Shown: one piece after another, positions 55,300 to 60,075 of the stretch | Position numbering within the stretch: position 1 is the stretch's first letter | How the letters are laid out: each line of letters opens with the position of its first letter | Translations under genes and position numbers: made by a program | Notes under the pieces: model-generated | What the model saw: only the letters and a program-made list of their open reading frames with translations | Told to the model about the DNA's origin: nothing | Databases searched by the model: none | Origin: Shigella phage vB_SboM_Phaginator | Length of the DNA stretch: 64,000 bases | Sequence record: OL615012 | Strand: one strand, 5' to 3'

Positions 55300-55303
55300 C
55301 AAT

Positions 55304-55330
55304 GGGGACCGAAAGGTCCCCATATTTTTT
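55304..55330 (+). terminator. rho-independent terminator after gene 54
   Basis: Hairpin GGGGACC-GAAA-GGTCCCC followed by ATATTTTTTATTT. Confidence 0.65.
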
Positions 55331-55619
55331 ATTTACGGAATGAAATAAAAGCAGCAACTGAAGCAACTAAACTGTCTTCAATATAAACTTCAATTTTTAC
55401 CGGAGCTTCTGATTCAAATTTACCTGTTACTACACCCTGAAAAATACTTTCAGTCTGTTCTGGCTTTGAAAAATTTTCAGAAGGAAAAATTCCGAACTTT
55501 TTATCTGTTCCAAAAATTTTGATAAATTCATCGTAAACTGCTTCATTAAAAGCATTATCAGCAGGAATAACGCCTTCAACTACAAGTTCTTGACCTAAAA
55601 AGCGCAAAGAAGATTTCAT
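55329..55619 (-). CDS. hypothetical protein downstream of alt
   Basis: 96-aa ORF, ATG start. Confidence 0.5.
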   Translation of the reverse strand: MKSSLRFLGQELVVEGVIPADNAFNEAVYDEFIKIFGTDKKFGIFPSENFSKPEQTESIFQGVVTGKFESEAPVKIEVYIEDSLVASVAAFISFRK

Positions 55620-55679
55620 TTTGTGTTCCTCATGTTATGTCAGTAAGATTACTATAACACAACACGAGGGACTTGTAAA

Positions 55680-57737
55680 CTACATTTTGAACTTTTTAGA
55701 CATTCCGTTAATGTTAACCAAAGAAGCTAAGATTTGAGAAACTTCGTTTTCCTCTTCTTTTGATTCTTCTACAAGGAATTGATTAAATCCAGTCATTGGA
55801 CGAACTTCACCAGTTTCCATCAAATGGTCGCCATCATATACTGATTCCTCTAATTGTTCAGAAGGAGGAACGATTGTACCTTCGATTAGATACTTGTTAT
55901 AAGCAGTTTCTTTCATAAAGTACGTACTTACTTTATTAATCTTCAGTAAAATTCCACGTGGTAGAATAACTTCAGCTTCTGATGGAAATCCTGATAAATG
56001 ACCTGGAACGATAACTTTGATTCGCTCAGCTCCTTTAATTACCATACCCACGCTAGTTTCAGCATCTTCATTAGCATATGTAGAATGACTACCCATATGC
56101 ATCAAATCTTCTGCATCAACGGAACCTTCTCCTTCACCAGAAAATACTGCGCCGGAATCATCTAGAGCCATATAGTTTTTACCATGCTCACCGAAGATAT
56201 TTGGTTTAAGCGATGTGGATACGAAGTTCTTGAAATAGAACATTTTGTTTTCAATGTTATGACGCAAAGTTTTAAAGGTAACTTCTTGACCACGGTAAAG
56301 TGTAGTTCCTGGAGGAAGAACTGAACCTTTAGCGAATGCAGAATCAAGCGTCTCAATATGTTTAATAGCTCGTTCCATATATTCTTCACGGGTAGAATCT
56401 GGTTTACCCAAAAGGAACGAGTTCATTTCAACATATGAATCTGCGCAATAATCTTCAATTACATCAGATTCAGCTTGAGTTAATCCTTTTGGAGTTACTT
56501 CGGTGCTCGCGTATTCATATGCCTGAGCGGCAGATTCATTAATCAATTTATAAATGCCATTCATGACAAATTGAATAATAGCTGTCTTTTCATCTGGTGT
56601 AGCTTTAGAACCTTTAACTAAATCATTGATAATTTTCTTAATAACATCAAAGCTATTAGAAATATTAATGTCAGCAAGATCGCTTAAAATTTTATCAGTT
56701 TTATAATCAAAGAATTCTTTATTCTTTAAATATTCTTGAGAACCTTGATATGTTATATCGCTCTGCAACTTGATAGATGGATCACGTAAACGCGCATGGG
56801 CTAATGCAATATGATTTCGGAAACTTTCTAGTTCATAATCATTAGATTTAAAACGAGAAGCACTTCTCATACCACCGATAGCTCCTTTGCTGAAGTTTGA
56901 ACCAATCTGAATAACGCCAGAGTTCATTGGTCCTTCTGCTTTATATACCGGAACTTTAGATTCAAACTCTTGATATTTCTTAGCAGCGAAGCTATCACCC
57001 TGAAGTGAAGCATCAACAGTAGAATATTGAGCTTGTGCTGCTAATCGACGACTAATTTTAGTTTTCTGAATAACAGCTTGATCAGTGCGCTTATCATTTT
57101 CTAAAGCAATAGAAGCAGCAACAGCAACAGCTTTAGGAACAGCATTTCCTGTTTTAACGTCTACATAAACATCACCAACCTTTGATTCAACTTTTGTGAA
57201 TAACTCAGTTGAAATAGGAGGTATACCTGGAATGTCTTCTAAATTGGCATTTTTACGGTAAACCATAATATATGCATATTTCTTATCATAGTCCCAGATT
57301 TCCTTTAAAAGAACATACCGACCTGCTCCTTTAGTACGTACTAAACGGTCAGCAATAACTTGCATTTGACGGGCTGCGCCATTTGTTTTACTTTTTAGTA
57401 CGCGGAATAGGCATGCATCAATTTTATACTGTTTCATTGTTTGAAGAGCAGTATCAAAAACAGCATTAATGACGCCAATTGGATTTCCACCCAAGTTTTT
57501 AAGCTTGACTAACGATAATTTCTCGTTGACACCTATCATTACGATATGCATCATTTTGTCGCCCGGCTTAACGTTTTTATTCGTATCGCCGCCAGAGGTG
57601 TATGTACAAAATCTAAATCCAGGAAGCACGCTTTCTTCGCCGACTTGGATAGCAAAAATTTGTGGTATTTTATGCTTAGGATTTAAGTTAACAACCGGCG
57701 CCGAAGCGCCGTCAAATAATTCTGTAATAAGTTCCAT
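55680..57737 (-). CDS. alt: Alt ADP-ribosyltransferase (head-packaged, injected)
   Basis: 685 aa; N-terminus MELITELFDGASAPVVNLNPKHKIPQIF; R-S-E motifs LYRGQ, FVSTSL, EAEVILPRG. Confidence 0.88.
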   Translation of the reverse strand: MELITELFDGASAPVVNLNPKHKIPQIFAIQVGEESVLPGFRFCTYTSGGDTNKNVKPGDKMMHIVMIGVNEKLSLVKLKNLGGNPIGVINAVFDTALQTMKQYKIDACLFRVLKSKTNGAARQMQVIADRLVRTKGAGRYVLLKEIWDYDKKYAYIMVYRKNANLEDIPGIPPISTELFTKVESKVGDVYVDVKTGNAVPKAVAVAASIALENDKRTDQAVIQKTKISRRLAAQAQYSTVDASLQGDSFAAKKYQEFESKVPVYKAEGPMNSGVIQIGSNFSKGAIGGMRSASRFKSNDYELESFRNHIALAHARLRDPSIKLQSDITYQGSQEYLKNKEFFDYKTDKILSDLADINISNSFDVIKKIINDLVKGSKATPDEKTAIIQFVMNGIYKLINESAAQAYEYASTEVTPKGLTQAESDVIEDYCADSYVEMNSFLLGKPDSTREEYMERAIKHIETLDSAFAKGSVLPPGTTLYRGQEVTFKTLRHNIENKMFYFKNFVSTSLKPNIFGEHGKNYMALDDSGAVFSGEGEGSVDAEDLMHMGSHSTYANEDAETSVGMVIKGAERIKVIVPGHLSGFPSEAEVILPRGILLKINKVSTYFMKETAYNKYLIEGTIVPPSEQLEESVYDGDHLMETGEVRPMTGFNQFLVEESKEEENEVSQILASLVNINGMSKKFKM

Positions 57738-57740
57738 GAT

Positions 57741-59834
57741 TTATCCTTGAACGAACTTGTAAGGCATGTTTGTAATATCTATGCAAGACGCAATAATTCC
57801 AAGAGATGATTCTACTTTCTGTTTAACATTTGATGAAACAAATGATGCAAAGTCAACTCTGTCTTCTATTTCAATATCATCTGTCATTGCAACTACTTCG
57901 CCGGTTTCCATTAAATGGTCTCCGTCATAGATTACCGATTCGGTGAGTTCTTCTGTGGTCATAACTTCAGCTTGAATGAGTTTTGTATTATTAGATGTTG
58001 TTCCGTCATTATTAGAAGCATCAGTTATTTTATTAACTTTGACCATCAATCCGCGCGGTAGAATAACTTCAGCTTCTGTTGCTATTCCGAGACTTCCTGG
58101 ATATACAACATTAACTTTATGAGCTCCATCAATTGCCCATCCTATTTGAACTTTAACGTATTCAGGATTTTCTTTATACGCTCTTATTTCGCTTGGATTA
58201 ATAGTTATTCCTTCTTCATTTTTATCAACTGTCAATTCATTACGAGCTTCTGGTTCTAAAAGACCAATACCAGCATGTGTAATTCCAAAACGTCCAAAAA
58301 TGATAGGAGTTAAAGAAGTAGATACAAAATTTCTGAAATAGAACACTTTATTTTTAACTAGTGCTTCGTATATAGGAGCAGTCATACTTTGAGCACGATA
58401 AACTGTGATGCCTTCCGGTATGCGGTCACCATTTTCAAAAGCTGAATCTAAGTTATTTATAGCAGATTCAATTTCTTTTTCACTCATTACATCATATCGT
58501 TCTGGATTGTAACGACCTAAAAGAAGATTATTGATGTCAGTATATCCTGAACCGCAATATTCTCTAATGCCACGCTTTTGTGATGGAGTATATTTAGAAC
58601 CATCACGGGCAATAGTAATATCAATCATTGGACCAGCACCAATTCCAGAAAAACTGTAAATCATTCGTTTGAGGAATTTAGTTTTTGCTGCGTTCCAGGA
58701 ATTTTTAGTTATTTCTTCCCAGACTTCATCTGGTTGTCCTTTACGAGTTTTATTATGTTTATCAAGCCAATTATCTTTATATTCTTCAAAGAATTTATTA
58801 ACAGCTGCTGCGTATTTCTCTAAACATTTTATTGAAGTAGTTGGTTCATTTTTGATTGCGTTAAAAATTACATCTTTAATTTTTTCTGAAACTTCATCAA
58901 CCTCACTTTTTGAAAAGAATTTATAGTCATAGTGAAGTTCATTCGCAGTTCCTTCGGCAATAATTTTTGCTGCCTTAGTTTTAGAAGCTAATGAATTAAT
59001 TCCAAGCTTCATTTCTTCTGCTTCGGGAATTAAAGGAGCGGTAGCAGGTTTATTGAAATTAGCTGCGGTAGATTCATACTTCTGGAATAATTCACTTTCA
59101 AATCTAGAAGATTCCAATGATTGACTTTGTGCAATTGCTCTACGGGAAATTTTAACTTTAACGATTACCGCTTGGTCAGAACGTTTATCATTTTCTTGCG
59201 CAATAGATGCTGCAATTGCCTCATTTTTAGTTACTTGGGCTCCAGTATCTTTATTGATATAAACATCACCGACCTTTGATTCAACTTTAGTAAATAGCTC
59301 GGTACTAATTTCCGGAACTCCTGGAATGTCTTCTAGTGATACATTTTTGCGATGTATAAGAATATATGCATACTTTTTATCGTAATCCCAGAGTTCCTTA
59401 AGAAGGACGTATCTGCCACCTGAACGACTACGGATAAGTCTATCAGCAATAACTTGAATTTGTCGAGCTTGGCCAGCAGTTTTAGACTTAAGAATACGAA
59501 GCATACAAGCATCAATTTTATATTGACGCATAGTTTGCATTGCAACAGTAAAAACTGAATTGATATAATTAATTGGGCTTGGACCAAGACCTTTTAATTT
59601 AGCAATTGAACCTTTAGCAGTTAATGTAAAAGGAACAATATGCATCATTTTATCGCCCATCTTTAAATCGCGATTAGTATCACCTCCAGATGTATAGGTA
59701 CATAAACGAAAGCCTGGTTGTTCAATTGCATCATCAACATGAACTGAAAAAATTTGTGGTATTTTCTTCTTTGGATTTAAGTTTGTAATCGGAAGAGTAG
59801 TATCTTCGTCAAATAATTCTGTAATAAGTTCCAT
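57741..59834 (-). CDS. second Alt-like ADP-ribosyltransferase paralogue
   Basis: 697 aa; N-terminal 230 aa and catalytic core (VYRAQ, FVSTSL, EAEVILPRG) match Alt, central region divergent. Confidence 0.8.
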   Translation of the reverse strand: MELITELFDEDTTLPITNLNPKKKIPQIFSVHVDDAIEQPGFRLCTYTSGGDTNRDLKMGDKMMHIVPFTLTAKGSIAKLKGLGPSPINYINSVFTVAMQTMRQYKIDACMLRILKSKTAGQARQIQVIADRLIRSRSGGRYVLLKELWDYDKKYAYILIHRKNVSLEDIPGVPEISTELFTKVESKVGDVYINKDTGAQVTKNEAIAASIAQENDKRSDQAVIVKVKISRRAIAQSQSLESSRFESELFQKYESTAANFNKPATAPLIPEAEEMKLGINSLASKTKAAKIIAEGTANELHYDYKFFSKSEVDEVSEKIKDVIFNAIKNEPTTSIKCLEKYAAAVNKFFEEYKDNWLDKHNKTRKGQPDEVWEEITKNSWNAAKTKFLKRMIYSFSGIGAGPMIDITIARDGSKYTPSQKRGIREYCGSGYTDINNLLLGRYNPERYDVMSEKEIESAINNLDSAFENGDRIPEGITVYRAQSMTAPIYEALVKNKVFYFRNFVSTSLTPIIFGRFGITHAGIGLLEPEARNELTVDKNEEGITINPSEIRAYKENPEYVKVQIGWAIDGAHKVNVVYPGSLGIATEAEVILPRGLMVKVNKITDASNNDGTTSNNTKLIQAEVMTTEELTESVIYDGDHLMETGEVVAMTDDIEIEDRVDFASFVSSNVKQKVESSLGIIASCIDITNMPYKFVQG

Positions 59835-59857
59835 TATAGCCTCTCTAGTGTTTATTC

Positions 59858-59865
59858 TATTTATA
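59858..59865 (-). promoter_or_regulatory. T4 late promoter TATAAATA for the alt-like/alt operon
   Basis: Exact TATAAATA on minus strand 24 bp upstream of the ATG at 59834. Confidence 0.5.
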
Positions 59866-59886
59866 AAATTAAAGGCCCGAAGGCCT

Positions 59887-60075
59887 TTAGTAATCTAGTG
59901 GTAAGAGAGTACGATATATTTCAAACTTTGGTCCTTTTTCATAGGCATCAAATGTTTCTGTAAATTTATTATAAGCGTATGCATCTACAAATTCGAGAAT
60001 GACTTGTGATACAGAAGTAGAAACATCTCCACCTTCTTTTTGAGCAATGACAATTGTTTCTAAGTAAGCTTTCAT
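59887..60075 (-). CDS. hypothetical small protein downstream of DNA ligase
   Basis: 62-aa ORF; start overlaps ligase stop (ATGA). Confidence 0.5.
   Translation of the reverse strand: MKAYLETIVIAQKEGGDVSTSVSQVILEFVDAYAYNKFTETFDAYEKGPKFEIYRTLLPLDY

Follow-up and report, generated by a model that had tools for sequence, protein, structure and literature searches.

Alt2, a conserved companion of the Alt ADP-ribosyltransferase in T2/RB32-type T-even phages

Alt (gpAlt) of bacteriophage T4 is the textbook phage enzyme that is injected with the DNA to reprogram the host, a 682-aa head-packaged NAD:arginine ADP-ribosyltransferase (ART). About 40 copies are placed in the prohead core and ejected with the DNA, after the protease gp21 has trimmed a short N-terminal propeptide and, according to mass spectrometry, a C-terminal one. 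Nearly all of this work was done in T4, which carries a minority, degenerate form of the locus. Here we describe the alt region of Shigella phage vB_SboM_Phaginator (record OL615012; the 64,000-nt stretch analyzed is referred to as the window), where alt is followed by a second full-length gene of the same type, Alt2. The two-gene arrangement is the ancestral form of the T-even alt region and is found in about four-fifths of sequenced Tequatrovirus genomes, including T2.

Nolan et al. (2006) recognized the small T4 genes alt.-1 and alt.-2 as paralogous to alt and described a full-length duplication in 44RR. Adjacent paralogous alt copies occur in 44RR (ORF187c/188c), RB49 (ORF183c), JSE and Ac42 (Nolan et al. 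2006); however, these phages belong to other genera and their copies are much more divergent (∼30% identity). T4 ModA and ModB are ARTs of the R-S-E clade from the same phage group, but they are small, expressed early, not packaged, devoid of the PF26846 N-terminal domain and encoded at another locus. The C3 exoenzyme, VIP2, iota/CDTa and Vis family (PF03496) has the catalytic fold and motifs seen in Alt2, but its members are secreted bacterial toxins with other delivery modules and only 13-20% sequence identity.

Two intact alt-type genes in tandem

The window carries a T2/RB32-type T-even locus with genes 29, 48 and 54 on the plus strand and, on the minus strand in order of transcription, gene 30 (DNA ligase), alt.1, a 697-aa open reading frame (ORF), a 685-aa ORF and alt.-3. 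The initial annotation, made from the sequence without database searches, held that the two large ORFs are full-length alt-type ART genes in tandem, and both were recovered, intact, at exactly the coordinates noted there:

57741-59834, minus strand: alt, 697 aa, positional orthologue of T4 Alt, of the T2/RB32/Bas37 allele class
55680-57737, minus strand: Alt2, the alt paralogue (alt.-2 of RB32, 'Alt2' of the BASEL collection), 685 aa

With gene 30/alt.1 on one side, alt.-3/gene 54 on the other and a late promoter, Alt2 occupies the position of the Tevenvirinae Alt family. T4 Alt has the same three-part architecture, R/STS/ExE motifs, MELITE start, late promoter and genomic slot, while being 41% identical to Alt2.

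Alt and Alt2 are 41% identical over their full length (BLASTP, E = 5e-160), and the identity is unevenly distributed. In a three-way alignment with T4 Alt, residues 1-238 of the two proteins are ∼67% identical, in agreement with the ∼230 common N-terminal residues reported initially, and the start MELITELFD is the same in both. Identity drops to just 10-20% over residues 239 to ∼430 and is 30-50% in the catalytic part, where another very divergent stretch separates STS from ExE; in the C-terminal tail, which begins at the invariant YDGDHLMETGE, it is 20-50%. A strongly divergent middle had been proposed, and this part of the description stands, but the region is ∼190 rather than ∼250 residues long and the loop region of the catalytic part forms a second variable segment. 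In both proteins, residues 1-6 are MELITE (I-T-E) and an invariant HLME-TGE lies close to the C-terminal end. The protease gp21 cleaves after (L/I)-x-E, a rule that the I-T-E of MELITE fits. At the DNA level, the 5' regions of alt and Alt2 are direct repeats at a spacing of 2094-2097 nt with 66% nucleotide identity. The domains are as follows; the PF26846 assignment was precomputed on a 99%-identical cluster representative of Alt2 and on all homologues:

59121-59834, minus strand: N-terminal domain of Alt, residues 1-238, 99.6% identical to T4 Alt 1-238
57024-57737, minus strand: N-terminal domain of Alt2, residues 1-238, PF26846 (Tevenvirinae_ADPRT), including the putative MELITE propeptide motif
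56448-57023, minus strand: divergent all-helical middle of Alt2, residues 239-430, 10-20% identical to Alt
55863-56447, minus strand: ART catalytic domain of Alt2, residues 431-625, with the PF03496 match spanning residues 416-620

PF03496 (ADPrib_exo_Tox) matches both Alt2 (E = 5.8e-20; 71.9 bits against a cut-off of 23.4) and Alt (E = 1.6e-37). The catalytic core described initially, with LYRGQ/VYRAQ, FVSTS and EAEVILPRG, was found in both proteins, and in Alt2 the Arg, the S-T-S and the E-x-E are all intact:

58395-58397, minus strand: catalytic Arg480 of Alt (VYRAQ)
58314-58322, minus strand: S505-T506-S507 of Alt
58068-58076, minus strand: E587-A-E589 of Alt
56292-56294, minus strand: catalytic Arg482 of Alt2 (LYRGQ), aligned to the YR of C3-like and BECa/CPILE-a ARTs
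56211-56219, minus strand: S507-T508-S509 of Alt2
55971-55979, minus strand: E587-A-E589 of Alt2 (ExE, the arginine-specific type), aligned to the Q-x-E of a C3-like ART and the E-x-E of BECa/CPILE-a

A sequence search of solved structures with Alt2 alone gave no match at E <= 0.01, which we take to mean that no Alt structure exists; C3-like ARTs were reached from Alt2 by profile search against solved structures. The AlphaFold2 model of Alt2 (pLDDT 76.9) consists of an alpha/beta N-domain (residues 1-240, pLDDT 84.8), an all-helical middle (helices over residues 250-442, pLDDT 80-93), an ART domain and a disordered tail. With the ART domain, Foldseek retrieved Vis (2e-7), C3bot1 (2e-5), CDTa, VIP2 and Certhrax from the PDB (E = 2e-7 to 1e-4) at target TM-scores of ∼0.6, and the catalytic domain is thus predicted to have a C3/Vis/VIP2-like fold.

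In C3-like enzymes the ARTT loop, which directly precedes (Q/E)-x-E, sets the choice of substrate. In the three-way alignment this loop differs between Alt2 (VPGHLSGFPSEAE), Alt (YPG-SLGIATEAE) and T4 Alt (LPGGSLAPSNEME). It had been inferred initially that the middle region would set target specificity; as the ARTT loop region is equally divergent, specificity need not reside in the middle.

Alt2 is under strong purifying selection. Between the window and RB32 the gene shows 49 synonymous and 7 non-synonymous differences, and between the window and T2 it shows 67 and 10, with a ratio of non-synonymous to synonymous rates (dN/dS, omega) of 0.037 in both comparisons; against a 74%-identical orthologue that also lies in tandem behind a 697-aa alt (L004), omega is 0.12. 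The constraint is spread over all regions, including the N-domain (0.03-0.05) and the divergent middle (0.04-0.14). A pseudogene is ruled out for this window by the full-length intact ORF together with these dN/dS values. Between Alt and Alt2, synonymous divergence (dS) is saturated (1.0-1.8).

The signals around the two genes are consistent with a single late transcript:

59858-59865, minus strand: T4-type late promoter TATAAATA, an exact match 23 nt before the alt ATG
57738-57750, minus strand: alt/Alt2 junction (...CAAGGATAAATCATGGAAC), with the alt stop TAA, a 3-nt spacer and the Alt2 ATG

The octamer upstream of alt is kept at the same place in T4, T2, RB32, Bas37, ECML-134 and L004. The AAGGA Shine-Dalgarno sequence of Alt2 sits within the final alt codons, and terminator prediction found no terminator in the intergenic junction. 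With a single TATAAATA upstream, the 3-nt spacer and no predicted terminator between the genes, the one obvious late promoter that had been assigned to the pair is indeed shared.

Distribution and history of the locus

Hundreds of Tequatrovirus genomes match the 4.8-kb region at 97-98% identity, and in most of their records a pair of Alt-like ADP-ribosyltransferases is annotated there. With the 685-aa protein as query, tblastn found a full-length copy at >=95% identity in 396 phage records, T2 included; the tandem pair is present in ∼80% of Tequatrovirus records, and in many phage records homology search finds 2-3 alt-like places. The RB32 record names the gene alt.-2, 'similar to alt', RefSeq labels alt and Alt2 alike as 'Alt-like RNA polymerase ADP-ribosyltransferase', and BASEL uses 'ADP-ribosyltransferase Alt2' (bas37_0032, bas42_0031). 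These are one and the same 685-aa gene between alt and alt.-3, at 98.7-99.0% aa identity: the window Alt2 is 99% identical to Bas37 and Bas42 Alt2 (Bas37, 99.0%) and 98.7% identical to that of T2, and the window Alt is 98.7% identical to Bas37 Alt and T2 Alt. The initial annotation was correct as an observation and supported in part as an interpretation, but the novelty it implied for the second gene does not hold, given that the gene is annotated and named in hundreds of genomes and its paralogy was published in 2006. Our searches for a functional study, virion proteomics or naming of Alt2 in the literature found only that report of paralogy (Nolan et al. 2006) and the supplement of the HIDEN-SEQ preprint discussed below; no published enzyme assay of Alt2 was found in the literature searched.

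Whether the second gene corresponds to T4 ORFs near alt had been left open. T4 alt.-1 (61 aa) is 95% identical to Alt2 residues 1-56 and T4 alt.-2 (67 aa) is 98% identical to residues 62-116, and comparison of the DNA shows that a 1-nt deletion in an A-run splits the two. T4 alt.-1/alt.-2 is a frameshifted remnant of Alt2 codons 1-116, and only one intact Alt copy is left in T4, as had been assumed. The remaining 1,699 nt of the Alt2 gene that are absent from T4 lie between two 9-nt repeats, CTAAAAAGT:

57390-57398, minus strand: 5' copy of CTAAAAAGT, left end of the T4 deletion
55691-55699, minus strand: 3' copy of CTAAAAAGT, right end of the T4 deletion, 1,699 nt downstream

In T4 the sequence across the junction is GCGTA-CTAAAAAGT-TCAAAATGTAG, with one repeat copy left. 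The RB32 record speaks of an 'apparent insertion in alt.-2'; however, because the repeat-flanked junction keeps a single CTAAAAAGT, T4 is the derived, deleted state and RB32 has no insertion. The T4-type remnant is found in ∼94 of 502 records.

The alt gene itself exists in several alleles. Compared with T4 Alt, the window Alt is 70% identical and mosaic, with 99.6% identity over residues 1-238 and 10-40% in the middle. At the DNA level (T4 alt, L002 2501-4549), the ends and flanks, including the C-terminus, have a dS of ∼0.11, and the middle and catalytic part one of 1.0-1.4. Near-identical ends that flank a strongly diverged middle and catalytic part point to exchange of a middle/catalytic cassette between alleles by recombination. 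In 316 records the allele is >=90% identical to the window type, and 211 records at 60-80% identity have the T4 type. A third, more distant allele (63% identity) is present in L004.

A different rearrangement has joined the two genes. In ECML-134, SCS4 and Yersinia phage PST, alt.1 and alt.-3 flank just one alt gene, of 686 aa, and the same kind of chimeric gene directly follows alt.1 in the metagenomic contigs L005 and L006; alt.-3 comes after it in L006, and L005 ends at the chimeric gene. In each fusion the 5' part is alt-type and the remainder Alt2-type, with one clean switch. The breakpoints fall at four different places (nt 297-303, 462-475, 546-564 and 660-666) within the 66%-identical 5' repeats, and the fusions arose by independent unequal recombination between these repeats. 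Since the sole alt gene of the viable phages ECML-134 and PST joins an Alt N-domain to an Alt2 body, the N-domains would be functionally interchangeable, and a phage can have the Alt2 body as its sole ART of the virion type. Short-read assembly artefacts were considered for the chimeric proteins (P0003-P0006) and rejected for the fusion state, as the complete ECML-134, SCS4 and PST genomes agree.

Relatives of Alt2 outside the genus were also noted. Alt proteins of the JS10/KM16 type (P0011-P0015; JS10 Alt, 707 aa) are 46-50% identical to Alt2 overall, and in P0011 and P0012 parts of the middle and catalytic regions are 50-79% identical to Alt2 as against 12-47% to the window Alt. Being nearer to Alt2 than to the window Alt, they suggest that the Alt2 lineage is older than the genus Tequatrovirus, and it may be the main 'Alt' in some other genera.

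The start of Alt is annotated in two ways. In the window, T2 and T4 it is MELITE... (697 or 682 aa), and in the BASEL records one codon earlier (MMELITE..., 698 aa; Bas37, L009 401-2497; Bas42, L010 2741-4837). The extra codon may account for the 7-residue Alt propeptide of one review, where the MELITE motif suggests 6 residues.

Transposon phenotypes and the proposed role of Alt2

Published insertion data are available for both genes in Bas37 (phage KarlGJung). The 2025 HIDEN-SEQ preprint (doi 10.1101/2025.11.20.689424) reports that T4 Alt is required to evade the defence system Mokosh type I and that plasmid-expressed Bas37 Alt (bas37_0033) could not replace T4 Alt against it. Alt2 is unmentioned in its main text, but figures for both genes are contained in its Extended Data Table 7; they are transposon data and not clean deletions (log2FC, log2 fold change):

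TA-site saturation, reference library: Alt, 164/179 = 0.92 ('Non-essential'); Alt2 (bas37_0032), 116/164 = 0.71 ('Intermediate')
Mean insertion count, K-12 control: Alt, 203.6; Alt2, 44.5
K-12 versus clinical strain CFE331: Alt, 203.6 to 68.6, log2FC -1.56, adj. p < 1e-5; Alt2, 44.5 to 48.3, log2FC +0.12, p 0.66
K-12 deltaRM versus Mokosh type I: Alt, 213.1 to 0.0, log2FC -7.74, adj. p < 1e-5; Alt2, 41.6 to 105.3, log2FC +1.32, adj. p < 1e-5

The phenotypes of the two genes differ, with opposite responses to Mokosh type I, and therefore the genes are not redundant. A few other Bas37 genes depleted at baseline also go up by +1.1 to +1.5 under Mokosh, however, so that the rise of Alt2 insertions there may simply reflect fewer rounds of competition.

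We consider it probable, at roughly 0.6 for the whole chain of steps, that Alt2 is a second head-packaged, processed and injected arginine mono-ART with targets different from those of Alt. The two genes would be co-transcribed late from TATAAATA at 59858-59865, with translation of Alt2 beginning 3 nt past the alt stop. Each product would comprise three parts: an N-domain behind the MELITE propeptide, a paralogue-specific helical region, and an R-S-ExE domain with a disordered tail. By analogy with T4 Alt, both proteins would be built into the prohead core, trimmed at both ends by gp21 and ejected with the DNA. In the host, they would mono-ADP-ribosylate arginines of host proteins, presumably acting on different substrates for different purposes, with Alt needed against Mokosh type I and Alt2 contributing to fitness on Escherichia coli K-12 through a role of its own. 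Packaging, processing and injection of Alt2 are suggested by the retention of the MELITELFD start, the N-domain, HLME-TGE ahead of the disordered tail and the late-promoter context, and different substrates are probable because the helical region and the loops before ExE differ. Packaging and target divergence are the weakest links of this proposal.

One alternative is that Alt2 is an active ART that is not packaged and acts late inside the producing cell. T4-type phages do use non-packaged ARTs, namely ModA and ModB, and the baseline fitness effect in Bas37 is equally compatible with either mode of action. However, the N-domain, the MELITE motif and the C-terminal HLME-TGE are conserved under purifying selection, natural fusions of an Alt N-domain to an Alt2 body are the only alt gene in viable phages, and the late-promoter context among baseplate and head genes is a sign of packaging according to Iyer et al., so that we regard this possibility as rather improbable. 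Somewhat less probable again is functional redundancy: Alt2 would share the targets of Alt, for instance RNA polymerase alpha, and its retention would be a matter of dosage or back-up only. This would fit the architecture, the arginine-type ExE site, the promoter and the N-domain that Alt2 shares with Alt, as well as the loss of Alt2 from T4 with no obvious harm. On the other hand, the saturated dS and low identity (41% overall, 10-20% in the middle and the pre-ExE loop) indicate that the duplication is old, and the divergent regions are themselves under strong purifying selection (omega 0.04-0.14), which argues for a specific function. In Bas37, moreover, alt insertions are not compensated by the intact Alt2, either in CFE331 or under Mokosh type I, and the baseline and conditional phenotypes of the two genes are dissimilar. 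That Alt2 is a decaying duplicate, on its way to the state seen in T4, is scarcely credible for a full-length ORF with all catalytic residues, an omega of 0.037, 396 intact copies and a measurable fitness cost of insertions in Bas37, even though T4 and ∼94 records keep just a frameshifted 116-codon stump and the tandem repeats are prone to recombination (four independent breakpoints in the fusions).

A more speculative extension of the packaged, injected Alt2 favored here, possible but on balance unlikely, is that Alt and Alt2 use their interchangeable N-domains to compete, as alternative cargoes, for the limited ∼40 positions in the head core. This would make the Alt:Alt2 mix tunable, with Alt2 acting on a distinct target that helps on K-12-like hosts and Alt neutralizing Mokosh-type defences, and loss of Alt2 would raise the dose of Alt. 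If true, such competition would explain the enrichment of Alt2 insertions under Mokosh type I, the recurrent reduction of the pair to one gene, by the deletion in T4 and by four or more independent fusions, and the cassette swaps between alleles.

What appears to be new is the exact repeat-mediated deletion in T4, the recurrent Alt/Alt2 fusions, and the divergent phenotypes that lie undiscussed in a public supplement. Finding the targets of Alt2 would be an incremental advance in a known system and not a new kind of system; it would add to the host processes that are attacked within seconds of infection, and it could account for the ways in which T4 and T2/T6-type phages differ in defence-system screens.

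Further signals and neighboring genes

The octamer TATAAATA occurs 25 times in the window against 9.4 expected, and one further exact copy lies inside alt. It was absent from the initial annotation:

58454-58461, minus strand: second exact TATAAATA, in A-I-N-N codons of alt, ∼700 nt upstream of Alt2

This internal copy is conserved only within the 98%-identical 697-aa allele (T2, RB32, Bas37) and is absent from the T4-type and other alleles. We do not claim it as a private promoter of Alt2, as chance alone would place ∼0.6 copies of the octamer in 4.2 kb; it could provide some independent late transcription of Alt2, or be a chance occurrence.

The elements that border the pair are the following:

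59887-60075, minus strand: alt.1, 62-aa ORF between gene 30 and alt, Pfam PF24647 'Phage_blade' (E = 2e-29)
59870-59889, minus strand: terminator-like hairpin after alt.1, directly upstream of the late promoter, 8 pairs and a T-run
55651-55679, minus strand: T4 early-promoter-like site, (G)TTTACA-17 nt-TATAGT with a TG extension
55329-55619, minus strand: alt.-3, 96 aa, downstream of Alt2, DUF5498, PF17602 (E = 1e-64)
55302-55323, both strands: bidirectional terminator between alt.-3 and gene 54, 9 pairs, 6 of them G-C

The hairpin at 59870-59889 closes the gene 30/alt.1 unit, and the strong terminator at 55302-55323 probably stops the late transcript of alt, Alt2 and alt.-3. In the alt.1 region, a 'putative toxin' is annotated by one BYU record (JLBYU22).

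The early-promoter-like site begins at the stop codon of Alt2, ∼30 nt before alt.-3 starts, so that alt.-3 may have early expression in addition to late read-through. In T4, this sequence makes up the 3' end of the remnant ORF alt.-2. The alt.-3 genes of the window and of T4 are identical. In Bas37 the orthologue, bas37_0031, is non-essential on K-12, but its insertions fall from 169.7 to 25.3 (log2FC -2.70, adjusted p 0.020) in the first host comparison sheet (CFT073 by sheet order), and alt.-3 may be a host-specific counter-defence gene.

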